64,000 bases of DNA from Haplodiscus bocki (taxonomy: Eukaryota): assembly GCA_965655095.1 (NCBI GenBank), contig OZ296652.1, forward strand, positions 372,001-436,000, in the 5' to 3' direction. Of this stretch, positions 1-52,000 are shown in pieces. The number at the start of each line of letters is the position of its first letter. Position 1 is the stretch's first letter. The notes beneath the pieces are model-generated. The model made no database searches. It was not told where the DNA came from and was given only the letters and a program-made list of their open reading frames with translations. Both the position numbers and the translations under genes were made by a program.

Positions 1-1349
1 ATGATTTTCACAAACGGCAAAAGGCGAAAAGAAATCACGATACTATAGAGCTTCAAGAATGGGACACTGAATCTGAAATCTCAACTACAGAATCAAGCAT
101 GTTTTTGAATTAGAAGCCGCTGAAGACCCTCCGAATAATCCACCTTCTTGCAACAATAGTAGATTATATAGAAGTTTGTTGGCGTTTTTTTAATAAGCGT
201 AACTTTACACTGGACTACTACACAAAAGTTCAAACATTGCTTTTTTTCATAAACGTAAAGGTAGAAAGCTTTGTGTTTAGTTTAGTCGGAAGTTCAATCT
301 AAGAATGTTCTACCGAAAAACTCAGTTTCATACGGCGTGACCGCTGTTTGATAACAGCAAAGTAATTGAACATGAAATTGCAGGAGCAAAAAATGGAATT
401 TATTTGAAAGTGCGAAAGTCTGTAGGTATTAATAAACGCACCACCGCAGCTGCTACAGATAGGTGAAGCAAGATAACCACTCCTATTACTAGCAAAGAAT
501 TTGAAAACAGACATGGCCACAGTCTGCTGCTCTCGAACCACATTTTTGCTGCTTCCCGAAACGAAATCTGCTTTTCAGAGATACCCTTTTCAGAGCAATA
601 AATATGCACTGCGACCAAAAATTATCGAATCATAAACTATTTTGAATAGTCTTGAGATCGTTTTCCTGGGAATTTTTGTGTAACTTTTCAGTGTACAGCA
701 AGATTTTCAGTCATACAACCTTTCATTTTATTCGTAGACGAGAAGTTCTCTGAATATTTCGTTGAAATCAGAGCATGAACTTGAAGTTTTTCTGCTTACT
801 CTCCTGAATGGTACACTCCGTCAATTCTGCTGTTTCTGTCCGCAGCAGATTATGGCGGTGTCTGGTTCGCAAAGTTATGCTAAAAATGTTAACATTATCT
901 GGAAGAGTTAGTTGATCCCCACTACCATAAAATTCAGTCACACTACATCCATTGATCGATTTTCGATCGATTCAGCCAGGAGCTCACTTGCAATGCTTTG
1001 TCAGAAAATTGTACAGCGTACCAGAATGGACGATAAAATCTCTGGGCTTCTAATTCCAGTGGTGGTCTACAATTCACCATTGTAATGAATAGTCTGATAC
1101 TACTTTTCAAAAACTTCACGAAACATTCCTTTTCCTTGCTATTTGTTGTTGGTAAAGCGTAAGTTCTGCATAGACACGGTAGCAAACAAAGTTTTGGCTC
1201 ATCCTTGCAATTCTCTCTAAAACTATGTGCAAGAATGTGATAAAAATTAACTTGATAAAGATTAATAGAGATGCCATAAGAAAGCTTACAGCGAACAAGA
1301 AGGATTGACAAAGAATGTGAAAAAGATACCGAAAGAAAGTTTGAGGAGA

Positions 1350-2540
1350 AAAAACCATGTACCGAACAGTAACCCCTCACAAAAGCAAACACTTGGCTTT
1401 TTTATCAATGCCAAGAACTTGCATAGGAAATAATCGAGAGTTTCTCTCTTTCATTGAAAAGCTTTGTCTGGAAAGAGTAAAGGAAGTTGATTTGCCAGAA
1501 GACTTCAGCACACCAGATGACTCTCACAATGGTTATCCAGATTTTCCTATGGCGCCGACTAAGGAACCAATTGATAATTACTGGCTACGGGAGATTCAGA
1601 CTGATAATCTGGGAATGACAGCAACAAAGACAACTTGAACAAACAGCAAAAAAAATTGGTAAACACTTCATAAAAAAAACCAACTACACAAAGCATTACC
1701 TGACAGTGACAAAAACGGTGAATTGGATTCAAAAAGTACCGAAACGCAGAGATTACTGCAATTTGAAAAGTGACAATGACTCCGAAAGTATATAGAACTA
1801 AACAAAAAGAAAAGCATTAGCAAAAAATTTGACAACTTCTATGATTATGATTAACTCAACCTTCGGCAAAAACATGAAAATCAAATGGATGAGATTATCG
1901 ATTGAGATTCTCCGCACGAAAGATCAGTTGTTAGCTTAAACAAAGAAAAAGTGGATCGAAACGAAAAAGATTATGAACAATCAAGTGGCCTCAAAAACGT
2001 CTGCACTGCGGAAAATCTATTGGGACACCGAATTTGTTGATGCCACAAACATGGAATATTGTTGGAACTCAATATGTATTGATTGCACTAAAAACATAAA
2101 GAACCAAGCTTCAAAACCATGAATAGGACGGCTTGCAAGAAGGCCTCAAAAAATGATTGAACTTGAACAAAAATTTGATTGTCCAAACTATCATCAACTG
2201 TACTCTAAACACCAAAACTTGGAAACACAAATTCAAAAACGAAATGCGCGGAAAAATCATTCAGAGTATCATTGCTCCAGAGACAAAGTTATATTCTACT
2301 TCTACGAAAGACGAAGCGGAAAATCTCCGCAAAAGGAACCACCAAGTATGCTCGGAGAGTCTACCAACATTCGGTTCCTTTTCCGAATTGTTGCAAAGGC
2401 AAAGAAATCTTGAAAACCTTCAACAACACAATAAATTCAATGGAACAATCTATTAGCTTTGCACACATCCAATAATTCTTTCATTTGTCCAAAGATACAC
2501 AATGTCCAATGGTGTGCTACAAAACCCTATTGGACATTAT
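1350..2540 (+). pseudogene. Decayed protein-primed-type family-B DNA polymerase fragment (Polinton/Maverick/adintovirus-like pPolB), copy 1
   Basis: Colinear motifs across frameshifts and stops: LGFFINAKNLH 1392-1424 (motif A, xDxNNLY); IIESFSLSLKSFVW 1430-1471 (M..LP..F.W); TPDDSHNGY-DFPMAPTKEPIDNYWL 1510-1587; KKLVNT..NYTKHYLT ~1650-1705; RLLQFEK*Q*LRKYIELN 1750-1803 (RVLxFxQxxWLxxYIxxN); xIMINSTFGKNM 1841-1876 (motif B, KLMxNSxFGKTME); RKIYWD 2009-2026; MY*LH*KHKEPSF 2074-2112; FDCPNYHQLYS 2174-2206; KFKNEMxGKII..KLYS 2229-2297; KISAKG 2320-2337; RYTMSNGVLQNPIGHY 2493-2540. Motif C YxDTDS is absent. Confidence 0.88.
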
Positions 2541-2641
2541 TGCTTCCCTGCAAGACAATGTAATATTCCAACAAACTATCGCAGACGTTGAATGGAAAGA
2601 AGAGGAAGAGGACAACGCTATTCAGAGTAATCAATAGCTTT

Positions 2642-2686
2642 TGTCAACACATATAATCAAATGGTCAAGAACTCTCTGTGTTGACA
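2642..2686. repeat. Perfect 10-bp inverted repeat (TGTCAACACA ... TGTGTTGACA) with a 25-nt loop, present in every unit
   Basis: Arms at 2642-2651 and 2677-2686 are exact reverse complements; seen at the equivalent position of all 18 full units. Confidence 0.9.
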
Positions 2687-4046
2687 CCCCCGATCATGAT
2701 TTTCACAAACGGCAAAAGCCGAAAACAAATCACGATATTATAGAGCTTCAAGAATGGGACACTGAATCTGAAATCTCAACTACAGAATCAAGCATGTTTT
2801 TGAATTAGAAGCCGCTGAAGACCCTCCGAATAATCCACCTTCTTGCAACAATAGTAGATTATATAATAGTTTGTTGGCGTTTTTTTAATAAGCGTAACTT
2901 TACACTGGACTACTACACAAAACTTCAAACATTGCTTTTTTTTCATAAACGTAAAGGTAGAAAGCTTTGTGTTTAGTTTAGTCGGAAGTTCAATCTAAGA
3001 AAGTTCTACCGAATATCTCAGTTTCATACGGCGTGACCGCTGTTTGATAACAGCAAAGTAACTGAACATGAAATTGCAGGAGCAAAAAATGGAATTGATT
3101 TGAAAGTGCGAAAGTCTGTAGGTATTAATAAACGCACCACCGCAGCTGCAACAGATAGGTGAAGCAAGATAACCACTCCTATTACTAGCAAAGAAATTGA
3201 AAACAGACATTGCCACTGTCGGCTGCTCTCGAACCACAATTTTGCTGCTTCCCGAAACGAAATCTGCTTTTCAGAGATACCCTTTTCAGAGCAATAAATA
3301 TACACTGCGACCAAAAATTATCGAATCAAAAACTATTTTGAATAGTCTTGAGATCGTTTTCCTGGGAAATTTTGTGTAATTTTTCAGTGTAAAGCAAGAT
3401 TTTCAGTCATACAACCTTTCATTTTATTCGTAGACGAGAAGTTCTCTGATTATTTCGTTGAAATCAGAGCATGAACTTGAAGTTTTTCTGCTTACTCTCC
3501 TGAATGGTACACTCCGTCAATTCTGCTGTTTCTGTCCGCAGCAGATTATGGCGGTGTCTGGTTGGCAAAGTTATGCTAACAATGTTAACATTATCTGGAA
3601 GAGTTAGTTGATCCCCACTACTATAAAATTCAGTCACACTACATCCATTGATCGATTTTTGATCGATTCAGCCAGGAGCTCACTTGCAATTCTTTGTCAG
3701 AAAATTGTACAGCGTACCAGACTGGACGATAAAATCTCTGGGCTTCTAATTCCAGTGGTGGTCTACAATTCACCATTGTAATGAATAGTCTGATACTACT
3801 TTTCAAAAAATTTCACGAAACATTCCTTTTCCTTGCTATTTGTTGTTGGTAAAGCGTAAGTTCTGCATAGACACGGTAGCAAACAAAGTTTTGGCTCATC
3901 CTTCCAATTCTCTCAAAAACTCTGTGCAAGAATGTGATAAAAATAAACTTGATAAAGATTAATAAAGATGCCATAAGAAAGCTTGCAGCGAACAAGAAGG
4001 ATTGACAAAGAATGTGAAAAAGATACCGAAAGAAAGTTTGAGGAGA

Positions 4047-5280
4047 AAAAACCATGTACCGAACAGTAACCCCTCAGAAATGCAAACACTTGGCTTTTTT
4101 ATCAATGCCAAGAACTTGCATAGGAAATAATCGAGAGTCTCTCTTTCATTGAAAAGCTTTGTCTGGAAAGAGTAAAGGAAGTTGATTTGCCAGAAGACTT
4201 CAGCACACCAGATGACTCTCACAATGGTTATCCAGATTTTCGTATGGCGCCGACTAAGGAACCAATTGATAATTACTGGCTAGGGGAGATTCAGACTGAT
4301 ATGCTGGGAATGGCAGCAACAAAGACAACTTGAACAAACAGCAAAAAAAATTGGTAAACACTTCATCAAAAAAACCAACTACACAAAGCATTACCTGACA
4401 GTGACAAAAACGGTGAATTGGATTCAAAAAGTACCGAAATGCAGAGATTACTGTAATTTGAAAAGTGAAAATGACTCCGAAAGTATATAGAACTAAACAA
4501 AAAGAAAAGCATCAGCAAAAAAATCGACAACTTCTAAGATTATGATTAACTCAACCTTCGGCAAAAACATGGAAATCAAATGGATGAGATTATCGATTGA
4601 GATTCTCCGCACGAAAGATCAGTTGTTAGCTTAAACAAAGAAAAAGTGGATCGAAACGAAAAAGATTATGACCAATCAAAAGGCCTCAAAAACGTTGCAC
4701 TGCGGAAAATCTATTGGGACACCGAATTTGTTGATGCCACAAACATGGAATATTGTTGGAACTCAATATGTATTGATTGCACTAAAAACATAAAGAACCA
4801 AGCTTCAAAACTATGAATAGGACGGCTTGCAAGAAGGCCTCAAAAACATGATACACTTGAACAAAAATTTGATTGTCCAAACTATCATCAACTGTACTCT
4901 AAACACCAAAACTTGGAAACACAAATTCAAAAACGAAATGCGCGGAAAAATCATTCAGAGTATCATTGCTCCAGAGACAAAGTTATATTCTACTTCTACG
5001 AAAGACGAAGCGGATAATCTCCGCAAAAGGAACCACCAAGTATGCTCGGAGAGTCTACCAACATTCGGTTCTTTTTCCGAATTGTTGCAAAGGCAAAGAA
5101 ATCCCAACATTCGGTTCTTTTGCCGAATTGTTGCAAAGGCAAAGAAATCTTGAAAACCTTCAACAACACAATAAATTCAATGGAGCAATCTATTAGCTTT
5201 GCACTCATCCAATAAGTCTTTCAATTGTCCAAAGATACACAATGTCCAATGGTGTGCTACAAAAGCCTATTGGACATTAT
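4047..5280 (+). pseudogene. pPolB pseudogene fragment, copy 2
   Basis: Near-identical to copy 1; motif B reads KIMINSTFGKNME; carries the 46-bp internal duplication. Confidence 0.86.
5058..5149 (+). repeat. 46-bp direct tandem duplication containing a bulged hairpin (units 2-18; single copy in unit 1)
   Basis: CCAACATTCGGTTCTTTTTCCGAATTGTTGCAAAGGCAAAGAAATC starts at 5058 and again at 5104. Unit 1 has one copy (~2364-2409) and is 46 bp shorter than unit 2. Confidence 0.97.
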
Positions 5281-13499: not shown

Positions 13500-15005
13500 T
13501 GCTTCCCTGCAAGACAATGTAATATTCCAACAAACTATCGCAGACGTTGAATGGAAAGAAGAGGAAGAGGACAACGCTATTCAGAGTAATCAATAGCTTT
13601 TGTCAACACATATAATCAAATGGTCAAGAACTCTCTGTGTTGACACCCCCGATCATGATTTTCACAAACGGCAAAAGCCGAAAACAAATCACGATATTAT
13701 AGAGCTTCAAGAATGGGACACTGAATCTGAAATCTCAACTACAGAATCAAGCATGTTTTTGAATTAGAAGCCGCTGAAGACCCTCCGAATAATCCACCTT
13801 CTTGCAACAATAGTAGATTATATAATAGTTTGTTGGCGTTTTTTTAATAAGCGTAACTTTACACTGGACTACTACACAAAACTTCAAACATTGCTTTTTT
13901 TCAAAAACGTGAAGGTAGAAAGCTTTGTGTTTAGTTTAGTCGGAAGTTCAATCTAAAAAATGTTCTACCGAATATCTCAGTTTCATACGGTGTGACCGCT
14001 GTTTGATAACAGCAAAGTAACTGAACATGAATTTGCAGGAGCAAAAAAATGGAATTTATCTGAAAGTGCGAAAGTCTGTAGGTATTAATAAACGCACCAC
14101 CGCAGCTGCTACAGATAGGTGAAGCAAGATAACCACTCCTATTACTAGCAAAGAATTTGAGAACAGATATGGCCACAGTCTGCTGCTCTCGAACCACAAT
14201 TTTGCTGCTTCCTGAAACGGAATCTGCTTTTCAGAGATACCCTTTTCAGAATAATAAATATGCACTGCGACCAAAAGTTATCGAATCATAAACTATTTTG
14301 AATAGTCTTGAGATCGTTTTCCTGGGAATTTTTGTGTAATTTTTCAGTGTACAGCAAGATTTTCAGTCATACAACCTTTCATTTTATTCGTAGACGAGAA
14401 GTTCTCTGATTATTTCGTTGAAATCAGAGCATGAACTTGAAAACTTTCTGCTTACTCTCCTGCTTGGTACACTCCGTCAATTCTGCTGTTTCTGTCTGCA
14501 GCAGATTATGGCGGTGTCTGGTTGGCAAAGTTATGCAAACAATGTTAACATTATCTGGAAGAGTTAGTTGATCCCCACTACTATAAAATTCAGTCACACT
14601 ACATCCATTGATCGATTTTTGATCGATTCAGCCAGGAGCTCACTTGCAATGCTTTGTCAGAAAATTGTACAGCGTACCAGACTGGAGGATAAAATCTCTG
14701 GGCTTCTAATCCCAGTGCTGGTCTACAATTTACCTTTGTAATGAATACTCCGATCGTGTTTTTCAAAAATTTCACGAAACATTCCTTTTCCTTGCTATTT
14801 GTTGTTGGTAAAGCGTAAGTTCTGCATAGACACGGTAGCAAACAAAGTTTTGGCTCATCCTTGTAATTCTCTCAAAAACTATGTGCAAGAATGTGATAAA
14901 AATTAACTTGATAAAGATTAATAAAGATGCCATAAGAAAGCTTGCAGCGAACAAGAAGGATTGACAAAGAATGTGAAAAAGATACCGAAAGAAAGTTTGA
15001 GGAGA

Positions 15006-16242
15006 AAAAACCATGTACCAAACAGTAACCCCTCAGAAAAGGAAACACTTGGCTTTTTTATCAATGCCAAGAACTTGCATAGGAAATAATCGAGAGTTTC
15101 TCTCTTTCATCGAAAAGCTTTGTCTGGAAAGAGTAAAGGAAGTTGATTTGCCAGAAGACTTCAGCACACCAGATGACTCTCACAATGGTTATCCAGATTT
15201 TCCTATGGCGCCGACTAAGGAACCAATTGATAATTACTGGCTAGGGGAGATTCAGACTGATATGCTGGGAATGACAGCAACAAAGACAACTTGAACAAAC
15301 AGCAAAAAAAATTGGTAAACACTTTATCAAAAAAACCAACTACCCAAAGCATTACCTGACACTGACAAAAACGGTGAATTGGATTTGAAAAGTACCGAAA
15401 CGCAGAGATTACTGCAATTTGAAAAGTGACAATGACTCCGAAAGTATATAGAACTAAACAAAAAGAAAAGCATCAGCAAAAAATTCGACAACTTCTAAGA
15501 TTATGATTAACTCAACCTTCGGCAAAAACATGAAAATCAGATGGATGAGATTATCGATTGAGATTCTCCGCACGAAAGATCAGTTGTTAGCTTAAACAAA
15601 GAAAAAGTGGATCGAAACGAGAAAGATTATGACCAATCAAGTGGCCTCAAAAACGTCTGCACTGCGGAAAATCTATTGGGACACCGAATTTGTTGATGCC
15701 ACAAACATGGAATATTGTTGGAACTCAATATGTATTGATTGCACTAAAAACATAAAGAACCAAGCTTCAAAACCATGAATAGGACGGCTTGCAAGAAGGC
15801 CTCAAAAAATGATTGAACTTGAACAAAAATTTGATTGTCCAAACTATCATCAACTGTATTCTAAACACCAAAACTTGGAAACACAAATTCAAAAACGAAA
15901 TGGGCGGAAAAATCATTCAGAGTATCATTGCTCCAGAGACAAAGTTATATTCTACTTCTACGAAAGACGAAGCGGAAAATCTCCGCAAAAGGAACCACCA
16001 AGTATGCTCGGAGAGTCTACCAACATTCGGTTCTTTTTCCGAATTGTTGCAAAGGCAAAGAATTCCCAACATTCGGTTCTTTTGCCGAATTGTTGCAAAG
16101 GCAAAGAAATCTTGAAAACCTTCAACAACACAATAAATTCAATGGAACAATCTATTAGCTTTGCACACATCCAATAATTCTTTCAATTGTCCAAAGATAC
16201 ACAATGTCCAATGGTGTGCTACAAAACCCTATTGGACATTAT
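15006..16242 (+). pseudogene. pPolB pseudogene fragment, copy 6
   Basis: Tandem copy with the same motifs and lesions. Confidence 0.86.
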
Positions 16243-17744
16243 TGCTTCCCTGCAAGACAATGTAATATTCCAACAAACTATCGCAGACGTTGAATGGAAA
16301 GAAGAGGAAGAGGACAACGCTATTCAGAGTAATCAATAGCTTTTGTCAACACATATAATCAAATGGTCAAGAACTCTCTGTGTTGACACCCCCGATCATG
16401 ATTTTCACAAACGGCAAAAGCCGAAAACAAATCACGATATTATAGAGCTTCAAGAATGGGACACTGAATCTGAAATCTCAACTACAGAATCAAGCATGTT
16501 TTTGAATTAGAAGCCGCTGAAGACCCTCCGAATAATCCACCTTCTTGCAACAATAGTAGATTATATAATAGTTTGTTGGCGTTTTTTTAATAAGCGTAAC
16601 TTTACACTGGACTACTACACAAAACTTCAAACATTGCTTTTTTTCAAAAACGTGAAGGTAGAAAGCTTTGTGTTTAGTTTAGTCGGAAGTTCAATCTAAA
16701 AAATGTTCTACCGAATATCTCAGTTTCATACGGTGTGACCGCTGTTTGATAACAGCAAAGTAACTGAACATGAATTTGCAGGAGCAAAAAAATGGAATTT
16801 ATCTGAAAGTGCGAAAGTCTGTAGATATTAATAAACGCACCACCGCAGCTGCTACAGATAGGTGAAGCAAGATAACCACTCCTATTACTAGCAAAGAATT
16901 TGAGAACAGATATGGCCACAGTCTGCTGCTCTCGAACCACAATTTTGCTGCTTCCTGAAACGGAATCTGCTTTTCAGAGATACCCTTTTCAGAGCAATAA
17001 ATATGCACTGCGACCAAAAGTTATCGAATCATAAACTATTTTGAATAGTCTTGAGATCGTTTTCCTGGGAATTTTTGTGTAATTTTTCAGTGTACAGCAA
17101 GATTTTCAGTCATACAACCTTTCATTTTATTCGTAGACGAGAAGTTCTCTGATTATTTCGTTGAAATCAGAGCATGAACTTGAAAATTTTCTGCTTACTC
17201 TCCTGCTTGGTACACTCCGTCAATTCTGCTGTTTCTGTCCGCAGCAGATTATGGCGGTGTCTGGTTGGCAAAGTTATGCAAACAATGTTAACATTATCTG
17301 GAAGAGTTAGTTGATCCCCACTACTATAAAATTCAGTCACACTACATCCATTGATCGATTTTTGATCGATTCAGCCAGGAGCTCACTTGCAATGCTTTGT
17401 CAGAAAATTGTACAGCGTACCAGACTGGAGGATAAAATCTCTGGGCTTCTAATCCCAGTGCTGGTCTACAATTCACCTTTGTAACGAATAGTCCGATCGT
17501 GTTTTTCAAAAATTTCACGAAACATTCCTTTTCCTTGCTATTTGTTGTTGGTAAAGCGTAAGTTCTGCATAGACACGGTAGCAAACAAAGTTTTGGCTCA
17601 TCCTTGTAATTCTCTCAAAAACTATGTGCAAGAATGTGATAAAAATTAACTTGATAAAGATTAATAAAGATGCCATAAGAAAGCTTGCAGCGAACAAGAA
17701 GGATTGACAAAGAATGTGAAAAAGATACCGAAAGTTTGAGGAGA

Positions 17745-18980
17745 AAAAACCATGTACCAAACAGTAACCCCTCAGAAAAGGAAACACTTGGCTTTTTTAT
17801 CAATGCCAAGAACTTGCATAGGAAATAATCGAGAGTTTCTCTCTTTCATTGAAAAGCTTTGTCTGGAAAGAGTAAAGGAAGTTGATTTGCCAGAAGACTT
17901 CAGCACACCAGATGACTCTCACAATGGTTATCCAGATTTTCCTATGGCGCCGACTAAGGAACCAATTGATAATTACTGGCTAGGGGAGATTCAGACTGAT
18001 ATGCTGGGAATGACAGCAACAAAGACAACTTGAACAAACAGCAAAAAAAATTGGTAAACACTTTATCAAAAAAACCAACTACCCAAAGCATTACCTGACA
18101 CTGACAAAAACGGTGAATTGGATTTGAAAAGTACCGAAACGCAGAGATTACTGCAATTTGAAAAGTGACAATGACTCCGAAAGTATATAGAACTAAACAA
18201 AAAGAAAAGCATCAGCAAAAAATTCGACAACTTCTAAGATTATGATTAACTCAACCTTCGGCAAAAACATGAAAATCAGATGGATGAGATTATCGATTGA
18301 GATTCTCCGCACGAAAGATCAGTTGTTAGCTTAAACAAAGAAAAAGTGGATCGAAACGAGAAAGATTATGACCAATCAAGTGGCCTCAAAAACGTCTGCA
18401 CTGCGGTAAATCTATTGGGACACCGAATTTGTTGATGCCACAAACATGGAATATTGTTGGAACTCAATATGTATTGATTGCACTAAAAACATAAAGAACC
18501 AAGCTTCAAAACCATGAATAGGACGGCTTGCAAGAAGGCCTCAAAAAATGATTGAACTTGAACAAAAATTTGATTGTCCAAACTATCATCAACTGTATTC
18601 TAAACACCAAAACTTGGAAACACAAATTCAAAAACGAAATGGGCGGAAAAATCATTCAGAGTATCATTGCTCCAGAGACAAAGTTATATTCTACTTCTAC
18701 GAAAGACGAAGCGGAAAATCTCCGCAAAAGGAACCACCAAGTATGCTCGGAGAGTCTACCAACATTCGGTTCTTTTTCCGAATTGTTGCAAAGGCAAAGA
18801 ATTCCCAACATTCGGCTCTTTTGCCGAACTGTTGCAAAGGCAAAGAAATCTTGAGAACTTTCAACAACACAATAAATTCAGTGGAACAATCTAATAGCTT
18901 TGCACACATCCAATAATTCTTTCAATTGTCCAAAGATACACAGTGTCCAATGGTGTGCTACAAAGCCTATTGGACATTAT
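17745..18980 (+). pseudogene. pPolB pseudogene fragment, copy 7
   Basis: Tandem copy with the same motifs and lesions. Confidence 0.86.
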
Positions 18981-20485
18981 TGCTTCCCTGCAAGACAATG
19001 TAATATTCCAACAAACTATCGCAGACGTTGAATGGAAAGAAGAGGAAGAGGACAACGCTATTCAGAGTAATCAATAGCTTTTGTCAACACATATAATCAA
19101 ATGGTCAAGAACTCTGTGTTGACACCCCCGATCATGATTTTCACAAACGGCAAAAGCCGAAAACAAATCACGATATTATAGAGCTTCAAGAATGGGACAC
19201 TGAATCTGAAATCTCAACTACAGAATCAAGCATGTTTTTGAATTAGAAGCCGCTGAAGACCCTCCGAATAATCCACCTTCTTGCAACAATAGTAGATTAT
19301 ATAATAGTTTGTTGGCGTTTTTTTTAATAAGCGTAACTTTACACTGGACTACTACACAAAACTTCAAACATTGCTTTTTTTCAAAAACGTGAAGGTAGAA
19401 AGCTTTGTGTTTAGTTTAGTAGGAAGTTCAATCTAAAAAATGTTCTACCGAATATCTCAGTTTCATACGGTGCGACCGCTGTTTGATAACAGCAAAGTAA
19501 CTGAACATGAATTTGCAGGAGCAAAAAAATGGAATTTATTTGAAAATGCGAAAGTCTGTAGGTATTAATAAACGCACCACCGCAACTGCTACAGATAGGT
19601 GAAGCAAGATAACCACTCCTATTACTAGCAAAGAATTTGAAAACAGACATGGCCACAGTCTGCTGCTCTCGAACCACAATTTTGCTGCTTCCTGAAACGG
19701 AATCTGCTTTTCAGAGATACCCTTTTCAGAGCAATAAATATGCACTGCGACCAAAAGTTATCGAATCATAAACTATTTTCAATAGTCTTGAGATCGTTTT
19801 CCTGGGAATTTTTGTGTAATTTTTCAGTGTACAGCAAGATTTTCAGTCATACAACCTTTCATTTTATTCGTAGACGAGAAGTTCTCTGATTATTTCGTTG
19901 AGATCAGAGCATGAACTTGAAGTTTTTCTGCTTACTCTCGTGAATGGTACACTCCGTCAATTCTGCTGTTTCTGTCCGCAGCAGATTATGGCGGTGTCTG
20001 GTTGGCAAAGTTATGCAAACAATGTTAACATTATCTGGAAGAGTTAGTTGATCCCCACTACTATAAAATTCAGTCACACTACATCCATTGATCGATTTTT
20101 GATCGATTCAGCCAGGAGCTCACTTGCAATGCTTTGTCAGAAAATTGTACAGCGTACCAGACTGGAGGATAAAATCTCTGGGCTTCTAATCCCAGTGCTG
20201 GTCTACAATTCACCATTGTAATGAATAGTCCGATCGTACTTTTCAAAAATTTCACGAAACATTCCTTTTCCTTGCTATTTGTTGTTGGTAAAGCTTAAGT
20301 TCTGCATAGACACGGTAGCAAACAAAGTTTTGGCTCATCCTTGTAATTCTCTCAAAAACTATGTGCAAGAATGTGATATAAAGTAACTTGATAAAGATTA
20401 ATAAAGATGCCATAAGAAAGCTTGCAGCGAACAAGAAGGATTGACAAAGAATGTGAAAAAGATACCGAAAGAAAGTTTGAGGAGA

Positions 20486-21721
20486 AAAAACCATGTACCG
20501 AACAGTAACCCCTCAGAAAAGGAAACACTTGGCTTTTTTATCAATGCCAAGAACTTGCATAGGAAATAATCGAGAGTTTCTCTCTTTCATTGAAAAGCTT
20601 TGTCTGGAAAGAGTAAAGGAAGTTGATTTGCCAGAAGACTTCAGCACACCAGATGACTCTCACAATGGTTATCCAGATTTTCCTATGGCGCCGACTAAGG
20701 AACCAATTGATAATTACTGGCTAGGGGAGATTCAGACTGATATGCTGGGAATGACAGCAACAAAGACAACTTGAACAAACAGCAAAAAAAATTGGTAAAC
20801 ACTTTATCAAAAAAACCAACTACCCAAAGCATTACCTGACACTGACAAAAACGGTGAATTGGATTTGAAAAGTACCGAAACGCAGAGATTACTGCAATTT
20901 GAAAAGTGACAATGACTCCGAAAGTATATAGAACTAAACAAAAAGAAAAGCATCAGCAAAAAATTCGACAACTTCTAAGATTATGATTAACTCAACCTTC
21001 GGCAAAAACATGAAAATCAGATGGATGAGATTATCGATTGAGATTCTCCGCACGAAAGATCAGTTGTTAGCTTAAACAAAGAAAAAGTGGATCGAAACGA
21101 GAAAGATTATGACCAATCAAGTGGCCTCAAAAACGTCTGCACTGCGGTAAATCTATTGGGACACCGAATTTGTTGATGCCACAAACATGGAATATTGTTG
21201 GAACTCAATATGTATTGATTGCACTAAAAACATAAAGAACCAAGCTTCAAAACCATGAATAGGACGGCTTGCAAGAAGGCCTCAAAAAATGATTGAACTT
21301 GAACAAAAATTTGATTGTCCAAACTATCATCAACTGTATTCTAAACACCAAAACTTGGAAACACAAATTCAAAAACGAAATGGGCGGAAAAATCATTCAG
21401 AGTATCATTGCTCCAGAGACAAAGTTATATTCTACTTCTACGAAAGACGAAGCGGAAAATCTCCGCAAAAGGAACCACCAAGTATGCTCGGAGAGTCTAC
21501 CAACATTCGGTTCTTTTTCCGAATTGTTGCAAAGGCAAAGAATTCCCAACATTCGGCTCTTTTGCCGAACTGTTGCAAAGGCAAAGAAATCTTGAGAACT
21601 TTCAACAACACAATAAATTCAGTGGAACAATCTAATAGCTTTGCACACATCCAATAATTCTTTCAATTGTCCAAAGATACACAGTGTCCAATGGTGTGCT
21701 ACAAAGCCTATTGGACATTAT
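20486..21721 (+). pseudogene. pPolB pseudogene fragment, copy 8
   Basis: Tandem copy with the same motifs and lesions. Confidence 0.86.
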
Positions 21722-23225
21722 TGCTTCCCTGCAAGACAATGTAATATTCCAACAAACTATCGCAGACGTTGAATGGAAAGAAGAGGAAGAGGACAACGCT
21801 ATTCAGAGTAATCAATAGCTTTTGTCAACACATATAATCAAATGGTCAAGAACTCTGTGTTGACACCCCCGATCATGATTTTCACAAACGGCAAAAGCCG
21901 AAAACAAATCACGATATTATAGAGCTTCAAGAATGGGACACTGAATCTGAAATCTCAACTACAGAATCAAGCATGTTTTTGAATTAGAAGCCGCTGAAGA
22001 CCCTCCGAATAATCCACCTTCTTGCAACAATAGTAGATTATATAATAGTTTGTTGGCGTTTTTTTAATAAGCGTAACTTTACACTGGACTACTACACAAA
22101 ACTTCAAACATTGCTTTTTTTCAAAAACGTGAAGGTAGAAAGCTTTGTGTTTAGTTTAGTCGGAAGTTCAATCTAAAAAATGTTCTACCGAATATCTCAG
22201 TTTCATACGGTGTGACCGCTGTTTGATAACAGCAAAGTAACTGAACATGAATTTGCAGGAGCAAAAAAATGGAATTTATCTGAAAGTGCGAAAGTCTGTA
22301 GGTATTAATAAACGCACCACCGCAGCTGCTACAGATAGGTGAAGCAAGATAACCACTCCTATTACTAGCAAAGAATTTGAGAACAGATATGGCCACAGTC
22401 TGCTGCTCTCGAACCACAATTTTGCTGCTTCCTGAAACGGAATCTGCTTTTCAGAGATACCCTTTTCAGAATAATAAATATGCACTGCGACCAAAAGTTA
22501 TCGAATCATAAACTATTTTGAATAGTCTTGAGATCGTTTTCCTGGGAATTTTTGTGTAATTTTTCAGTGTACAGCAAGATTTTCAGTCATACAACCTTTC
22601 ATTTTATTCGTAGACGAGAAGTTCTCTGATTATTTCGTTGAAATCAGAGCATGAACTTGAAAACTTTCTGCTTACTCTCCTGCTTGGTACACTCCGTCAA
22701 TTCTGCTGTTTCTGTCTGCAGCAGATTATGGCGGTGTCTGGTTGGCAAAGTTATGCAAACAATGTTAACATTATCTGGAAGAGTTAGTTGATCCCCACTA
22801 CTATAAAATTCAGTCACACTACATCCATTGATCGATTTTTGATCGATTCAGCCAGGAGCTCACTTGCAATGCTTTGTCAGAAAATTGTACAGCGTACCAG
22901 ACTGGAGGATAAAATCTCTGGGCTTCTAATCCCAGTGCTGGTCTACAATTTACCTTTGTAATGAATACTCCGATCGTGTTTTTCAAAAATTTCACGAAAC
23001 ATTCCTTTTCCTTGCTATTTGTTGTTGGTAAAGCGTAAGTTCTGCATAGACACGGTAGCAAACAAAGTTTTGGCTCATCCTTGTAATTCTCTCAAAAACT
23101 ATGTGCAAGAATGTGATAAAAATTAACTTGATAAAGATTAATAAAGATGCCATAAGAAAGCTTGCAGCGAACAAGAAGGATTGACAAAGAATGTGAAAAA
23201 GATACCGAAAGAAAGTTTGAGGAGA

Positions 23226-24462
23226 AAAAACCATGTACCAAACAGTAACCCCTCAGAAAAGGAAACACTTGGCTTTTTTATCAATGCCAAGAACTTGCAT
23301 AGGAAATAATCGAGAGTTTCTCTCTTTCATCGAAAAGCTTTGTCTGGAAAGAGTAAAGGAAGTTGATTTGCCAGAAGACTTCAGCACACCAGATGACTCT
23401 CACAATGGTTATCCAGATTTTCCTATGGCGCCGACTAAGGAACCAATTGATAATTACTGGCTAGGGGAGATTCAGACTGATATGCTGGGAATGACAGCAA
23501 CAAAGACAACTTGAACAAACAGCAAAAAAAATTGGTAAACACTTTATCAAAAAAACCAACTACCCAAAGCATTACCTGACACTGACAAAAACGGTGAATT
23601 GGATTTGAAAAGTACCGAAACGCAGAGATTACTGCAATTTGAAAAGTGACAATGACTCCGAAAGTATATAGAACTAAACAAAAAGAAAAGCATCAGCAAA
23701 AAATTCGACAACTTCTAAGATTATGATTAACTCAACCTTCGGCAAAAACATGAAAATCAGATGGATGAGATTATCGATTGAGATTCTCCGCACGAAAGAT
23801 CAGTTGTTAGCTTAAACAAAGAAAAAGTGGATCGAAACGAGAAAGATTATGACCAATCAAGTGGCCTCAAAAACGTCTGCACTGCGGAAAATCTATTGGG
23901 ACACCGAATTTGTTGATGCCACAAACATGGAATATTGTTGGAACTCAATATGTATTGATTGCACTAAAAACATAAAGAACCAAGCTTCAAAACCATGAAT
24001 AGGACGGCTTGCAAGAAGGCCTCAAAAAATGATTGAACTTGAACAAAAATTTGATTGTCCAAACTATCATCAACTGTATTCTAAACACCAAAACTTGGAA
24101 ACACAAATTCAAAAACGAAATGGGCGGAAAAATCATTCAGAGTATCATTGCTCCAGAGACAAAGTTATATTCTACTTCTACGAAAGACGAAGCGGAAAAT
24201 CTCCGCAAAAGGAACCACCAAGTATGCTCGGAGAGTCTACCAACATTCGGTTCTTTTTCCGAATTGTTGCAAAGGCAAAGAATTCCCAACATTCGGTTCT
24301 TTTGCCGAATTGTTGCAAAGGCAAAGAAATCTTGAAAACCTTCAACAACACAATAAATTCAATGGAACAATCTATTAGCTTTGCACACATCCAATAATTC
24401 TTTCAATTGTCCAAAGATACACAATGTCCAATGGTGTGCTACAAAACCCTATTGGACATTAT
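23226..24462 (+). pseudogene. pPolB pseudogene fragment, copy 9
   Basis: Appears identical to copy 6 (offset 8220). Confidence 0.86.
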
Positions 24463-25964: not shown

Positions 25965-27200
25965 AAAAACCATGTACCAAACAGTAACCCCTCAGAAAAG
26001 GAAACACTTGGCTTTTTTATCAATGCCAAGAACTTGCATAGGAAATAATCGAGAGTTTCTCTCTTTCATTGAAAAGCTTTGTCTGGAAAGAGTAAAGGAA
26101 GTTGATTTGCCAGAAGACTTCAGCACACCAGATGACTCTCACAATGGTTATCCAGATTTTCCTATGGCGCCGACTAAGGAACCAATTGATAATTACTGGC
26201 TAGGGGAGATTCAGACTGATATGCTGGGAATGACAGCAACAAAGACAACTTGAACAAACAGCAAAAAAAATTGGTAAACACTTTATCAAAAAAACCAACT
26301 ACCCAAAGCATTACCTGACACTGACAAAAACGGTGAATTGGATTTGAAAAGTACCGAAACGCAGAGATTACTGCAATTTGAAAAGTGACAATGACTCCGA
26401 AAGTATATAGAACTAAACAAAAAGAAAAGCATCAGCAAAAAATTCGACAACTTCTAAGATTATGATTAACTCAACCTTCGGCAAAAACATGAAAATCAGA
26501 TGGATGAGATTATCGATTGAGATTCTCCGCACGAAAGATCAGTTGTTAGCTTAAACAAAGAAAAAGTGGATCGAAACGAGAAAGATTATGACCAATCAAG
26601 TGGCCTCAAAAACGTCTGCACTGCGGTAAATCTATTGGGACACCGAATTTGTTGATGCCACAAACATGGAATATTGTTGGAACTCAATATGTATTGATTG
26701 CACTAAAAACATAAAGAACCAAGCTTCAAAACCATGAATAGGACGGCTTGCAAGAAGGCCTCAAAAAATGATTGAACTTGAACAAAAATTTGATTGTCCA
26801 AACTATCATCAACTGTATTCTAAACACCAAAACTTGGAAACACAAATTCAAAAACGAAATGGGCGGAAAAATCATTCAGAGTATCATTGCTCCAGAGACA
26901 AAGTTATATTCTACTTCTACGAAAGACGAAGCGGAAAATCTCCGCAAAAGGAACCACCAAGTATGCTCGGAGAGTCTACCAACATTCGGTTCTTTTTCCG
27001 AATTGTTGCAAAGGCAAAGAATTCCCAACATTCGGCTCTTTTGCCGAACTGTTGCAAAGGCAAAGAAATCTTGAGAACTTTCAACAACACAATAAATTCA
27101 GTGGAACAATCTAATAGCTTTGCACACATCCAATAATTCTTTCAATTGTCCAAAGATACACAGTGTCCAATGGTGTGCTACAAAGCCTATTGGACATTAT
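25965..27200 (+). pseudogene. pPolB pseudogene fragment, copy 10
   Basis: Appears identical to copy 7 (offset 8220). Confidence 0.86.
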
Positions 27201-28705: not shown

Positions 28706-29939
28706 AAAAACCATGTACCGAACAGTAACCCCTCAGAAAAGGAAACACTTGGCTTTTTTATCAATGCCAAGAACTTGCATAGGAAATAATCGAGAGTTTC
28801 TCTCTTTCATTGAAAAGCTTTGTCTGGAAAGAGTAAAGGAAGTTGATTTGCCAGAAGACTTCAGCACACCAGATGACTCTCACAATGGTTATCCAGATTT
28901 TCCTATGGCGCCGACTAAGGAACCAATTGATAATTACTGGCTAGGGGAGATTCAGACTGATATGCTGGGAATGACAGCAACAAAGACAACTTGAACAAAC
29001 AGCAAAAAAAATTGGTAAACACTTTATCAAAAAAACCAACTACCCAAAGCATTACCTGACACTGACAAAAACGGTGAATTGGATTTGAAAAGTACCGAAA
29101 CGCAGAGATTACTGCAATTTGAAAAGTGACAATGACTCCGAAAGTATATAGAACTAAACAAAAAGAAAAGCATCAGCAAAAAATTCGACAACTTCTAAGA
29201 TTATGATTAACTCAACGTTCGGCAAAAACATGAAAATCAGATGGATGAGATTATCGATTGAGATTCTCCGCACGAAAGATCAGTTGTTAGCTTAAACAAA
29301 GAAAAAGTGGATCGAAACGAGAAAGATTATGACCAATCAAGTGGCCTCAAAAACGTCTGCACTGCGGTAAATCTATTGGGACACCGAATTTGTTGATGCC
29401 ACAAACATGGAATATTGTTGGAACTCAATATGTATTGATTGCACTAAAAACATAAAGAACCAAGCTTCAAAACTATGAATAGGACGGCTTGCAAGAAGGC
29501 CTCAAAAACATGATACACTTGAACAAAAATTTGATTGTCCAAACTATCATCAACTGTACTCTAAACACCAAAACTTGGAAACAAATTCAAAAACGAAATG
29601 GGCGGAAAAATCATTCAGAGTATCATTGCTCCAGAGACAAAGTTATATTCTACTTCTACGAAAGACGAAGCGGAAAATCTCCGCAAAAGGAACCACCAAG
29701 TATGCTCGGAGAGTCTACCAACATTCGGTTCTTTTTCCGAATTGTTGCAAAGGCAAAGAATTCCCAACATTCGGTTCTTTTGCCGAACTGTTGCAAAGGC
29801 AAAGAAATCTTGAGAACTTTCAACAACACAATAAATTCAGTGGAACAATCTAATAGCTTTGCACACATCCAATAATTCTTTCAATTGTCCAAAGATACAC
29901 AATGTCCAATGGTGTGCTACAAAGCCTATTGGACATTAT
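28706..29939 (+). pseudogene. pPolB pseudogene fragment, copy 11
   Basis: Tandem copy; its first ~750 bp match copy 8 apart from one substitution. Confidence 0.86.
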
Positions 29940-46293: not shown

Positions 46294-47775
46294 TTCTTCC
46301 CTGCAAGACAATGTAATATTCCAACAAACTATCGCAGACGTTGAATGGAGAGAAGAGGAGGAGGACAACGCTATTCAGAGTAATCAATAGCTTTTGTCAA
46401 CACATATAATCAAATGGTCAAAAACTCTCTGTGTTGACACCCCCGATCATGATTTTCACAAACGGCAAAAACCGAAAACAAATCACGATATTATAGAGCT
46501 TCAAGAATGGGACAGAATCATGCATGTTTTTGAATTAGAAGCCGCTGAAGACCCTCCGAATAATCCACCTTCTTGCAACAATAGTAGATTATATAATAGT
46601 TTGTTGGCGTTTTTTTAATAAGCGTAACTTTACACTGGACTACTACACAAAACTTCAAACATTGCTTTTTTTCAAAAACGTAAAGGTAGAAAGCTTTGTG
46701 TTTAGTTTAGTCGGAAGTTCAATCTAAGAATGTTGTACCGAATATCTCAGTTTCATACGGCGTGACCGCTGTTTGATAACAGCAAAGTAACTGAACATGA
46801 AATTGCAGGAGCAAAAAAATGGAATTTATTTGAAAGTGCGAAAGTCTGTAGGTATTAATAAACGCACCACCGCAACTGCTACAGATAGGTGAAGCAAGAT
46901 AACCACTCCTTTTACTAGCAAAGAATTTGAAAACAGACCTGGCCACAGTCTGCTGCCCTCGAACCACAATTTTGCTGCTTCCCGAAACGGAATCTGCTTT
47001 TCAGAGATACCCTTTTCAGAGCAATAAATATGCACTGCGACCAAAAGTTATCGAATCATAAACTATTTTCAATAGTCTTGAGATCGTTTTCCTGGGAATT
47101 TTTGTGTAATTTTTCAGTGTACAGCAAGATTTTCAGTCATACAACCTTTCATTTTATTCGTAGACGAGAAGTTCTCTGATTATTTCGTTGAAATCAGAGC
47201 ATGAACTTGAAGTTTTTCTGCTTACTCTCGTGAATGGTACACTCCGTCAATTCTGCTGTTTCTGTCCGCAGCAGATTATGGCGGTGTCTGGTTGGCAAAG
47301 TTATGCAAACAATGTTAACATTATCTGGAAGAGTTAGTTGATCCCCACTACTATAAAATTCAGTCACACTACATCCATTGATCGATTTTTGATCGATTCA
47401 GCCAGGAGCTCACTTGCAATGCTTTGTCAGAAAATTGTACAGCGTACCAGACTGGAGGATAAAATCTCTGGGCTTCTAATCCCAGTGCTGGTCTACAATT
47501 CACCATTGTAATGAATAGTCCGATCGTACTTTTCAAAAATTTCACGAAACATTCCTTTTCCTTGCTATTTGTTGTTGGTAAAGCGTAAGTTCTGCATAGA
47601 CACGGTAGCAAACAAAGTTTTGGCTCATCCTTGTAATTCTCTCTAAAACTATGTGCAAGAATGTGATAAAAATTAACTTGATAAAGATTAATAGAGATGC
47701 CATAAGAAAGCTTACAGCGAACAAGAAGGATTGACAAAGAATGTGAAAACGATACCGAAAGAAAGTTTGAGGAGA

Positions 47776-49010
47776 AAAAACCATGTACCGAACAGTAACC
47801 CCTCAGAAAAGCAAACACTTGGCTTTTTTATCAATGCCAAGAACTTGCATAGGAAATAATCGAGAGTTTCTCTATTTCATTGAAAAGCTTTGTCTGGAAA
47901 GAGTAAAGGAAGTTGATTTGCCAGAAGACCTCAGCACACCAGATGACTCTCACAAGGGTTTTCCAGATTTTCCTATGGCGCCGACTAAGGAACCAATTGA
48001 TAAATACTGGCTACGGGAGATTCAGACTGATACGCTGGGAATGACAGCAACAAAGACAACTTGAACAAACAGCAAAAAAAATTGGTAAACACTTTATCAA
48101 AAAAACCAACTACACAAAGCATTACCTGACAGTGACAAAAACGGTGAATTGGATTCGAAAAGTACCGAAACGCAGAGATTACTGCAATTTGAAAAGTGAA
48201 AATGACTCCGAAAGTATATAGAACTAAACAAAAAGAAAAGCATCAGCAAAAAATTCGACAACTTCTAAGATTATGATTAACACAACCTTCGGCAAAAACA
48301 TGGAAATCAAATGTATGAGATTATCGATTGAGATTCTCCGCACGAAAGATCAGTTATTAGCTTAAACAAAGCAAAAGTGGATCGAAACGAGAAAGATTAT
48401 GACCAATCAAGTGGCCTCAGAAACGTCTGCACTGCGGAAAATCTATTGGGACACCGAATTTGTTGATGCCACAAACATGGAATGTTGTTGGAACTCAATA
48501 TGTATTGATTGCACTAAAAACATAAAGAACCAAGCTTCAAAACTATGAATAGGACGGCTTGCAAGAAGGCCTCAAAAACATGATACACTTGAACAAAAAT
48601 TTGATTGTCCAAACTATCATCAACTGTACTCTAAACACCAAAACTTGGAAACAAATTCAAAAACGAAATGGGCGGAAAAATCATTCAGAGTATCATTGCT
48701 CCAGAGACAAAGTTATATTCTACTTCTACGAAAGACGAAGCGGAAAATCTCCGCAAAAGGAACCACCAAGTATGCTCGGAGAGTCTACCAACATTCGGTT
48801 CTTTTTCCGAATTGTTGCAAAGGCAAAGAATTCCCAACATTCGGTTCTTTTGCCGAATTGTTGCAAAGGCAAAGAAATCTTGAGAACTTTCAACAACACA
48901 ATAAATTCAGTGGAACAATCTAATAGCTTTGCACACATCCAATACTTCTTTCAATTGTCCAAAGATACACAATGTCCAATGGTGTGCTACAAAAGCCTAT
49001 TGGACATTAT
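47776..49010 (+). pseudogene. pPolB pseudogene fragment, copy 18 (last complete copy)
   Basis: Tandem copy; a TAA>TAC change lengthens one frame to 182 aa (48559..49107). Confidence 0.86.
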
Positions 49011-52000
49011 TGCTTCCCTGCAAGACAATGTAATATTCCAACAAACTATCGCAGACGTTGAATGGAAAGAAGAGGAAGAGGACAACGCTATTCAGAGTAA
49101 TCAATAGCTTCTGTCAACACATATAATCAAAGGGTCAACAACTCTCTGTGTTGACACCCCCGATCATGATTTTCACAAACGGCAAAAGCCGAAAACAAAT
49201 CACGATATTATAGAGCTTCAAGAATGGGACAGAATCAAGCATGTTTTTGAATTAGAAGCCGCTGAAGACCCTCCGAATAATCCACCTTCTTGCAACAATA
49301 GTAGATTATATAAAAGATTGTTGGCGTTTTTTTAATAAGCGTAACTTTACACTGGACTACTACACAAAACTTCAAACATTGCTTTTTTTCAAAAACGTAA
49401 AGGTAGAAAGCTTTGTGTTTAGTTTAGTCGGAAGTTCAATCTAAGAATGTTGTACCGAATATCTCAGTTTCATACGGCGTGACCGCTGTTTGATAACAGC
49501 AAAGTAACTGAACATGAATTTGCAGGAGCAAAAAAATGGAATTGATTTGAAAGTGCGAGAGTCTGTAGGTATTAATAAACGCACCACCGCAGCTGCTACA
49601 GATAGGTGAAGCAAGATAACCACTCCTATTACTAGCAAAGAATTTGAAAACAGACATGGCCACAGTCTGCTGCTCTCGAACCACAATTTTGCTGCTTCCC
49701 GAAACGAAATCTGCTTTTCAGAGATACCCTTTTCAGAGCAATAAATATGCACTGCGACCAAAAATTATCGAATCATAAACTATTTTGAATAGTCTTGAGA
49801 TCGTTTTCCTGGGAATTTTTGTGTAATTTTTCAGTGTACAGCAAGATTTTCAGTCATACAACCTTTCATTTTATTCGTAGACGAGAAGTTCTCTGATTAT
49901 TTCGTTGAAATCAGAGCATGAACTTGAAGTTTTTCTGCTTACTCTCCTGAATGGTACACTCCGTCAATTCTGCTGTTTCTGTCCGCAGCAGATTATGGCG
50001 GTGTCTGGTTGGCAAAGTTATGCAAACAATGTTAACATTATCTGGAAGTGTTAGTTGATCCCCACTACTATAAAATTCAGTCACACTACATCCAAACTTC
50101 AGGGCTAGTTCAGCCTAAATTTCGAGACTTTCGAAGCGATACCAAGAAAACCTACCCTTTCCTTACACGTTAATTTCAAAGTTTGGTTTTTGAAGAGGTT
50201 TTGTGGAAGCGGTCAAAAACGCCTCAGCACGAATTAAACTCGGCAGTGGCAAGGGATTCAGAGACTTTTCTCAATTTGGAGGAGTTCCTAATATCAAATA
50301 TGGAGCAGTCTTCAAAGAGAGGACGGATCGAGCTGCTCCCCTCTACCAGCTGAAAAGCCAATCGTTTTCCTTTCTACTATTTTTCCTCTTGGTTTTGTTT
50401 AAATTTACTTTCCGTCGTAATATATCTCACGAAAGGAAGATCATTCCCTTAGTATGCACTTTTTTCTGCCTGAATTGCTAATTCAATGTGAGTATGTTCA
50501 TTTTTTATTCCCAAAACGTTCCACTGGACACGTAAAATGCAGTTTTGTTAATCCTCCCGCAAAATTTCCGCAAATCCTCGGGATGTTTTCTGCTCAAAGT
50601 CTGGAAAAAGTCAACATTTTCAAAAATCCCACGATGTTCTTGAATATATATGAAATCAGGTTTGACTCTGCTGAATGTTGAAACTCACTTTCCTACAGAG
50701 CAACATGGATCAATTCTTCTATTAGGGTCTCAGTCGACAACCACTCACTTGCAGAGGACTTTCCAGAAAAAAAATCACGGTTTTTCTTTGCCTCCGAACT
50801 CTTACACGCTGATAATGCCGAAAGGTCTATTAAAAACAGATCTCGATTCTAAAACTCTAGATATTTCGAAACTAACAACTTGAATTTCTGCATTATTGGA
50901 TCAACAGAGATCTCTCTACTTGAGGAAGGCTATCCAAATAGTAAAGTTGATTGTTGCTTTCGTTGGAATCCTGATAATGCAAAAAAAGCTATCAATTTAG
51001 AAACACCTCGATGATCAAATTCAAACCTTTCAAGGACTTGATTTTTCCAAACATTGGCTTGATTTTTTCCATCACGGTCTCAACCATCAGCTTTTTAAAT
51101 GTGGACTATGACAAAAAAAATCATTTTTTTCCGGTTCCGTAGGAAACCTGATACTGCCCAAATGCCAACAAGTGCTCATAAAAATGACATGGATCGACAT
51201 TCAATTTCATATTACTTCAACACTACCTGCTTCACTCCTGCAAACGTTTCAATCAACAGATTTTGACTGGACGAGGAGTTTTCAAAAACTTTCCGAGAAA
51301 AACTTGGAAAAGGGGCTAACATTGGACACCTTGAACATAAGTTTTTTACCAGAGGTCATTTTATTGACCATGTAGGATTGCAAATTGCTTGAACTTCGCA
51401 GAGGCTTAAAGAAGAGATTCTGTTCTAGCACATATTCAACTTGAGTTGCGGCCCAACAATCTTTCAATCTTGCATGTTTTTCATTTTGGCACCTAGTTCC
51501 TCAATTCAAATTTGAACATCCACAAAAGGAAAATTCAAAGCTATCAGATATCTAATCTCTGTTGCAGTGACGAAGCTTTTTGATAATTTTTTTGCGAACT
51601 GGTCTTAAAAGTTCAGCTTTTTTCAAAATTTTCCGTCAGTTTTCAAACGCGGTCCCTTGAACTCTCAGCAATTCTGAGAGAAATCCTTAAATTGCCACAG
51701 CATTGGAAAACAGAAATATTATTCTGTTACAATTCCATTGCGGACAGCAAATTTTTCATTGGGATTTTTGCGAAAGAATTTTGATAATCCAGTTTAGTTT
51801 GGTGTTCCGAAGAAACTTGTCAACATGAAGTCTTCAATCTGGGCATCTAGGTCTCGAACATACTCGAACTTTGAACAACTTTAATCACAGACTCCCATTC
51901 ATGAAAGAGTAGCTTTTCCTTTCGCTGTCAATGTTTCTCGTTCGGTTTTTTCCGCGAGAAAATTTTGCAAATCGAGCTTTTTTCAATTACTTTTTGACAA

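Follow-up and report, generated by a model that had tools for sequence, protein, structure and literature searches.

A tandem array occupies positions 1 to 50094 of the 64,000-nucleotide stretch of Haplodiscus bocki DNA analyzed here (the window, G000:C5:372,001-436,000; C5 is contig OZ296652.1, 119 Mb long, in an assembly of 1.5 Gb). To all appearances, the array lies inside the decayed Polinton (Maverick) element from which it was made, an internal slice of that element having been amplified in place. On balance, we consider it likely that the array arose by neutral amplification of a slice of an already broken Polinton, through one repair-made duplication followed by unequal exchange and conversion, and that it has no function.

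The whole array spans C5:359,274-422,094 (62.8 kb, 23 head-to-tail units), with neither end at an N gap; its left start is 12,726 bp outside the window and its right end falls exactly at window position 50094. Unit lengths range from 2,696 to 2,744 bp, the pairwise difference is 0 to 3.5% (mean, 2.25%), and the array opens and closes in one phase, giving an integer number of units. Self-comparison of the window yielded k-mer spacing peaks at 2,715 to 2,744 bp and units 96 to 98% alike, in agreement with a first-pass annotation of the window that had described a 2.7-kb unit repeated at least 18 times; the unit start that it had placed at position 1 needs correction, as the true phase starts at about 952. 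In a whole-genome DNA search, which scored the best candidates only, all 23 near-identical matches to two parts of the unit lay at this locus on C5. Kilobase-sized head-to-tail units, many copies, a single locus, and concerted evolution (neighbor similarity and mosaic copies) are thus found together, as in a macrosatellite. The features of the array, in window positions, are the following.

1..50094, plus strand: right 80% of the array (18 full units and 951 bp), from self-comparison and the flanking stretches
952..3647, plus strand: one phase-aligned unit, copy 6 of 23, 2,696 bp, the sole copy without the 46-bp internal duplication (unit alignment)
963..1243, no strand assigned: slice from just past the protease gene that covers the 5' part of the conserved orf224 region; its identity to dispersed relatives is 67%, and a 4.3-kb deletion relative to them follows (DNA alignment to relatives)
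3197..3567, no strand assigned: piece of an unrelated dispersed repeat (70 to 78% identical to copies on many chromosomes) within the Polinton right arm, coamplified (genome DNA search)
5058..5149, plus strand: 46-bp internal tandem duplication, in 22 of 23 units (self-comparison and unit alignment)
13633..29216, plus strand: three-unit block repeat, in which 13633-20996 is letter-identical to the stretch 8,220 bp downstream
47378..50094, plus strand: last unit, the end of which runs into the parent right arm without a junction insert (junction alignment)

The identical stretch at the three-unit period is 7,364 bp long and represents either a very recent duplication or an assembly error. That the array might, on this account, be partly an assembly artefact is extremely improbable: the other copies differ by 0.5 to 3.5%, the units in doubt number at most about 3 of 23, and both multicopy depth and the exact right junction recur in contigs of three of four runs, the three representing two samples of one organism. 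Specifically, pieces of the unit had 13 to 19 times the contig depth of the flank in two public runs of one sample, contig depth being a rough measure and not a copy number (run X4, the depth of which was very uneven, was left out for copy number). Run X5, of organism B, yielded no more than a few 151-base pieces at depth 2 to 3. By our own arithmetic, 23 copies that are each 1.4% off the column majority give an expected depth of about 15-fold for 31-base words. The right array end was crossed by a contig without any difference in three runs from two samples, although one of the samples (S1) may be the one behind the assembly.

Each unit is composed of 280 bp from just past the protease gene, the last third of the polymerase gene, and a part of the right arm with a foreign dispersed repeat of roughly 370 bp; polymerase sequence accounts for only about half of it. 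The origin of that half from a dead protein-primed DNA polymerase B (pPolB) of the Polinton/Maverick type, as proposed in the first-pass annotation, is supported by sequence comparison. In the frameshift-aware alignment suggested there, the unit and a dispersed decayed relative scored 406 to 498 (41 to 45% identity over 405 to 479 codons) in 23 of 23 copies, whereas eight codon shuffles scored 35 to 39 and the reverse strand scored 32. Similarly, 30 of 83 outside pPolB-like proteins matched one unit at an E value of ≤1e-3, and none matched the reversed unit. Within the genome, the unit matches long open reading frames (ORFs) that carry PF03175 together with zinc-finger and endonuclease VII domains, and it aligns to residues 934 to 1114 and beyond of a genome ORF with PF03175 (E 3e-15). 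Pfam searches detected PF03175 in none of the three plus-strand frames of the unit, no relevant match in its short ORFs, and no match in any of six right-arm frames. Genome-wide, the 15 loci that score best for PF03175 are from a different clade, and only 2 of them touched the unit (E 0.001). When the polymerase of a second Polinton family was searched against PDB sequences, no match was returned. The polymerase span, put at unit positions 1350 to 2820 in the first-pass annotation, was measured close to that, at about 1375 to 2776 in the first phase-aligned copy of the window, and its parts are listed here.

1375..2776, plus strand: broken C-terminal third of a pPolB gene (frameshift-aware alignment and outside homologues)
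1404..1427, plus strand: motif A remnant, with the catalytic aspartate gone in 23 of 23 copies (sequence)
1844..1870, plus strand: motif B remnant, KIMINSTFGK in 21 of 23 copies (homologue alignment)
2493..2540, plus strand: C-terminal RY..PxGH stretch, in a single frame in 8 of 23 copies and shifted in 15 (sequence)

Of the motif run that had been described from the motif A remnant to this C-terminal stretch, the A remnant, motif B, and the C terminus are present; motif C is absent from all 23 copies, deleted rather than decayed. The motifs of an active Polinton polymerase are not intact: the exonuclease part is gone with the 4.3-kb upstream deletion, motif A is decayed, and motif C is lacking. 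Every copy contains 12 to 16 frameshifts and 5 to 11 stops relative to the dispersed relative, and four stops and four frameshifts occur at the same place in all 23 copies. Because these lesions are common to all copies, the polymerase gene was dead before amplification.

To the left of the array, at C5:355.4-359.1 kb, there are relics of an integrase, PZ, orf154, the major capsid protein, and the protease, in the order of an intact element. The integrase relic (C5:355,625-356,422) is 35% identical to an rve ORF (E 2e-32) and contains eight stops. The major capsid relic (C5:357,684-358,863) is 30% identical to a 440-amino-acid ORF (E 3e-33) without a Pfam match, the capsid label of which is based on gene position and on Atlas neighbors (score of 0.98; one cluster with a DJR-like domain in 30% of its members). 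At the protease position (C5:358,993-359,124), a weak match (E 3e-4 to 3e-3) to a 168-amino-acid ORF was found in a region with 66 to 71% DNA identity to relatives; we take this ORF, which has no Pfam match, to be a putative protease by its position and sequence. All other gene names used for the parent, except integrase, ATPase, and polymerase, are likewise presumed, partly from position. Since the relatives do have a packaging ATPase and no match to it was found in C5:346-362 kb, we read the ATPase as probably deleted from the parent copy.

Six dispersed relatives (five of them 85 to 91% alike and one 71 to 74%) match the left relics at 62 to 71%, and homology to them crosses the left array end in six of six cases and the right end in five of six. 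At the right, the alignments to all three relatives with known termini stop at one and the same base, window position 50378, on CTACT, and ACT has been reported as the terminus of Maverick ends (PMC8097293). No left terminal repeat of the parent was found above background, while the relatives carry both ends; with the left end of the parent lost, a target-site duplication of the 5 to 8 bp typical of Polintons could be sought among the relatives, of which one (C9b) has a 6-bp duplication and two others have no clear one. The right-hand remainder of the parent inside the window is as follows.

50095..50378, plus strand: single-copy rest of the parent right arm, ending in the decayed terminal inverted repeat, of which CTACT are the last bases (alignment to relatives)

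With relics in Polinton order at the left, homology across both ends, and a right terminal repeat at 50378, the array appears to have been made in place. The earlier view of a satellite made solely from a dead piece is correct as far as it goes, but it misleads: the piece was not moved or selected, and it is still bordered by other genes of the parent and by the right terminal repeat. We reject the arrival of a preformed array from another place, since homology to relatives runs across both ends, and a Helitron-type tandem insertion, since both flanks continue the same Polinton as the unit. An intact parent element had been proposed as a search target, and related long-ORF elements of 18 to 20 kb are present in the genome; they are furnished with terminal inverted repeats and, besides an ATPase and an integrase, have genes at the capsid position. 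By kind and descent, the parent is a Polinton, though it falls short of an intact element.

The founding event can be read from the junctions between units, the first of which inside the window contains the following feature.

952..959, plus strand: founding junction insert of 8 bases (junction alignment)

This insert, a copy of bases 4 to 11 of the unit start, is present at 22 of 22 internal junctions and at neither outer end, and 21 of the 22 junctions are identical over 32 bases. Since one junction is common to all 22, there was a single founding duplication. We infer that it was caused by end joining. Template switching in replication would leave a similar junction. Polymerase theta has been described as typically leaving templated insertions and as producing tandem duplications of 1 kb to 1 Mb (PMC7368036).

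Growth after this founding event was likely stepwise, by unequal exchange together with conversion. First, the distance between copies grows with their separation, from 1.5% at one step to 2.5% at ten (Mantel r 0.41, p 0.0002). Second, site incompatibility rises from 0.09 at less than 100 bp to 0.37 at more than 600 bp (136 informative sites; permutation p 0.001). Third, indels occur in blocks, such as a 23-bp deletion in six of the last eight units. Because the copies are about 2% apart, compared to a distance of 30 to 38% between the host element and its relatives, amplification must have come late in the decay of the element; conversion makes this divergence of about 2% a lower bound on the age of the array.

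In summary, the course of events was likely as follows. A Polinton with an integrase, a gene at the minor capsid position, a major capsid gene, a putative protease, a polymerase, and terminal repeats occupied the locus; before amplification, it lost 4.3 kb (including the N-terminal two thirds of the polymerase) as well as motif C, and gained stops, frameshifts, and a foreign repeat, lesions that are placed before amplification because all copies have them. A break may then have been mended by end joining of the microhomology type, through polymerase theta or template switching, producing two copies and the 8-base templated insert. Subsequently, to judge from the mosaic patterns, misaligned recombination would have expanded these to 23 copies and kept neighbors alike, in sequence presumably under no selection. 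Arrays of this kind would recur because Polinton debris makes up more than a tenth of the genome and arrays with kilobase-sized units are common there.

Alternatively, a circle cut from the dead element could have been copied by a rolling-circle mechanism, with the concatemer reentering its own site and most copies arising at once. A rolling-circle origin has been proposed for long satellites (PMC4935994; PMC9659126 on Bari1 clusters) and would fit the one junction in all copies, the integer unit number, and the many singletons, but it requires homologous reentry at the site of origin. Moreover, neighbor similarity, the blocks of indels (again, the 23-bp deletion), the identical three-unit block, and the mosaic copies all indicate stepwise change. 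Finally, the terminal repeat is the replication origin of Polintons, and the slice has neither a terminal repeat nor a working polymerase. We regard rolling-circle amplification as decidedly unlikely and retain stepwise growth from a single duplication.

Variants among copies are evenly distributed over codon positions 1, 2, and 3 (41, 37, and 41; p=0.86), which argues for a lack of selection on the protein, while the older differences from a relative are concentrated at third positions (0.35 to 0.38, 0.31 to 0.34, and 0.48 to 0.50). Variant density is 0.10 in the polymerase part and 0.11 and 0.15 elsewhere. CpG transitions amount to 0.077 per CpG position, compared to 0.068 elsewhere; no CpG decay was seen among the copies as a sign of methylation, a result that is uninformative at a genome-wide observed/expected CpG ratio of 0.93. 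Of the three roles offered in the first-pass annotation, neutrality fits best, and the other two, a centromeric and a small-RNA role, seem unlikely.

In the small-RNA scenario, the host would keep the array as a source of PIWI-interacting or small interfering RNAs (piRNA/siRNA), or of repressive chromatin, directed against Polintons, and amplification would raise the dose. A target is present, in the form of Polinton families with long open genes and copies that are 96 to 99% identical, and there are several arrays of Polinton slices, one of which (on C6; see below) has about 80% DNA identity to its own abundant family. However, none of the 2,712 26-mers of the unit was within four mismatches of an intact element of the C4 family or of the intact C5d element, and for two decayed relatives, only 1 and 9 of the 2,712 came within three mismatches. 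Near-perfect complementarity to an active target was thus lacking for both intact elements, two out of the many Polinton families of this genome. The best dispersed matches in the genome reach 68 to 71% for the Polinton part and about 77% for the foreign repeat. Taken together, this makes a host-kept small-RNA source an unlikely explanation.

A centromeric or centromere-seeding satellite is a very unlikely one. Tandem repeats derived from retrotransposons do occur at maize centromeres (PMC3648361), and such repeats expand in the primary constrictions of Lathyrus (PMC7004042). Yet centromeric satellites would be expected as large arrays on all chromosomes, and what was found is one locus of 63 kb, 0.36 to 0.42 Mb into a 119-Mb scaffold, with the rough depth of 13 to 19 times the flank giving no sign of a far larger collapsed array. 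In addition, the genome has a long 31/123-bp satellite elsewhere. No telomere repeats were found in the outermost parts of C5 (20 kb at its start and 10 kb at its end), and for this reason we do not apply the label subtelomeric to the array. As a separate observation, a 10-kb stretch (L114; G000:C2:60.00-60.01 Mb) consists entirely of this 31/123-bp satellite (about 80% match), which is a more usual candidate for the major satellite.

Polinton DNA is abundant in this genome. A first look with three queries returned 10,957, 11,501, and 7,666 Polinton candidates. Among 35 ten-kb stretches sampled at round-number coordinates, 9 had Polinton protein matches and 11 had protein or DNA matches (reversed controls, 0), although two DNA-only matches may be other repeats and a smaller library gave 5 of 35. 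Polinton bases added up to 48,129 of 349,000, or 38,212 without a stretch that is itself an array, and Polinton DNA makes up at least about 11% of the sampled sequence. Tandem arrays were present in 3 of the 35 stretches.

Additionally, the amplification of Polinton slices is not rare in this genome. A second array (G000:C6:89,960,414-90,025,430), met in one of the three array-bearing stretches of the sample, has about 37 units of 1,312 bp, 91 to 100% alike, with a 17-kb insert within; its slice corresponds to polymerase residues of approximately 122 to 560 of a second Polinton family (with PF03175, double jelly roll, and rve genes), and parent genes lie colinear alongside. A third array (G000:C8:5,953,761-5,968,721; 5.2 units of 2.88 kb, 97.5 to 99% alike), found via a search with the left boundary, is a slice of the capsid and protease region of a decayed Polinton related to that of the window, with integrase and ATPase relics alongside. 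Finally, a 3.19-kb tandem duplication (G000:C9:81,367,654-81,374,020; 98.3%) holds part of a Polinton polymerase and adjoins a Polinton in the opposite orientation. The array on C8, with its capsid slice, shows that polymerase sequence is not required, and a polymerase-specific mechanism is ruled out. One could speculate that the host repeatedly amplifies in place slices from at least two Polinton families, polymerase or capsid, as dose-boosted templates for small RNAs or silencing against its Polinton load, an amplified antiviral memory; we find this decidedly unlikely.

A number of points weigh against neutral amplification as we describe it. The part given to polymerase theta is read from one junction only. 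Singletons make up 163 of 319 variants, a proportion that an early burst of copying would fit as well. Some of the shared frameshifts may belong to the decayed reference, in the reading of which there are 14 stops. Neutral change in a dead frame would also be compatible with a role as noncoding DNA or RNA. Lastly, three arrays and one duplication came to light with little searching, two of them in searches directed at Polintons and against a sample of only 35 stretches, and a real enrichment of arrays in Polintons may exist.

While the array probably matters little as far as function is concerned, it is an unusually complete record of the birth of a macrosatellite, rare among satellites in that the parent, both outer ends, the founding junction, and the pattern of later recombination can all be read. 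The recurrence of such arrays in a Polinton-rich genome provides a set of independent cases for how arrays with kilobase-sized units start and whether they feed small-RNA silencing; if they do so, defense against endogenous DNA viruses could be strengthened through tandem amplification.

Several observations on the Polinton families themselves were made along the way. In an intact-looking family, the polymerase gene is split between motifs B and C at L048:6265-6463 (G000:C4:62.554 Mb) and in six other copies. The insert runs from GT to AG in seven of seven copies, measures 184 to 198 bp, and has a T-rich 3' end; in four of the seven, its length is not divisible by 3, which fits a genuine spliceosomal intron. 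Neither the satellite nor the relatives of the satellite contain it. Vertebrate Mavericks were reported to be intronless (PMC8097293), and introners are known in dinoflagellate Polinton-like elements (10.1101/2025.03.18.643946). The same intron-bearing family has an open ORF resembling ribosomal protein S5 (uS5) inside its terminal repeats (L048:9266-9769, minus strand; L045:583-1149, plus strand), with both Pfam domains above the cutoff and with two versions that are 40% identical even though the elements are 96% alike. No report of a uS5-like ORF in Polintons was found in a brief literature search, and this ORF may be of more interest than the array. The right arm of this intact family (L045:1459-3685, L048:7374-8787, L051, and L054) also holds a 1- to 3.5-kb array of short GC-rich repeats of variable length, and on both of its strands several frames are open. 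In the second Polinton family, a RING-finger ORF (zf-C3HC4_3) lies inside the terminal repeats at L155:4441-5280.

The remainder of the window, to the right of the parent, contains the following.

53220-53470 and 53505-53759, no strand assigned: old 255-bp direct duplication, 77% identical (self-comparison)
54858-55901, minus strand: decayed long interspersed nuclear element (LINE)-like retrotransposon, RVT_1 below cutoff (E 4e-5)
56525-60077, plus strand: decayed LINE-like retrotransposon, RVT_1 below cutoff (E 5e-4)
about 62780-63760, no strand assigned: reverse-transcriptase-like relic, by eye only

Ten kilobases to the left of the array, G000:C5:334,558-348,911 holds an element resembling a long terminal repeat (LTR) retrotransposon, with 818-bp terminal repeats that are 97.6% alike and an assembly gap.

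The human macrosatellites D4Z4, DXZ4, and RS447 are single-locus arrays with kilobase-sized units in tens of copies; unlike these, the unit in the window has no intact gene, is not GC rich, and has no known regulation. In Nicotiana, tandem geminivirus-related DNA in the chromosome repeats part of a viral replication gene and includes the viral origin, whereas the unit here lacks the terminal repeat and the array grew inside the integrated element. Polintons/Mavericks have an integrase, capsid genes, a protease, a pPolB, and terminal repeats of the form AGT...ACT, and most genomic copies (96% in vertebrates) are eroded (10.1101/2023.08.22.554363; PMC8097293). The parent described here is dead and without ATPase, left end, and most of its pPolB; an internal slice of it is present 23-fold, and the unit itself is not an element. 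Within the literature searched, the scope of which excluded subscription papers and supplements, no array with kilobase-sized units had been traced inside its parent Polinton, and the accessible parts of PMC9248874, PMC7859515, PMC7598501, and 10.1101/2024.01.15.575659 describe no such Polinton array. Transposon-slice arrays also appear in PMC7004042, and the accessible text of a review (PMC9659126) makes no mention of Polintons. Nearest is the locust satellite LmiSat34-299, with a 299-bp monomer, identified by read clustering and, like the unit here, homologous to Polinton coding sequence (PMC4935994); the accessible part of that paper names no gene, parent, or junction, whereas a 2.7-kb unit, the parent, its ends, and the founding junction are visible here. 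The array thus belongs to a known kind, the transposon-derived tandem array, as do the maize tandem repeats CRM1TR and CRM4TR, which derive from centromeric retrotransposons (PMC3648361). With these it shares the single locus, the slice of a transposon as unit, a nonhomologous founding junction, and growth and mosaicism by conversion; the maize arrays, however, have an LTR-retrotransposon parent that is 97 to 98% like a living family and lie in or near centromeres, whereas the array in the window has a Polinton parent that is 63 to 71% like its nearest relatives and lies near a scaffold end.

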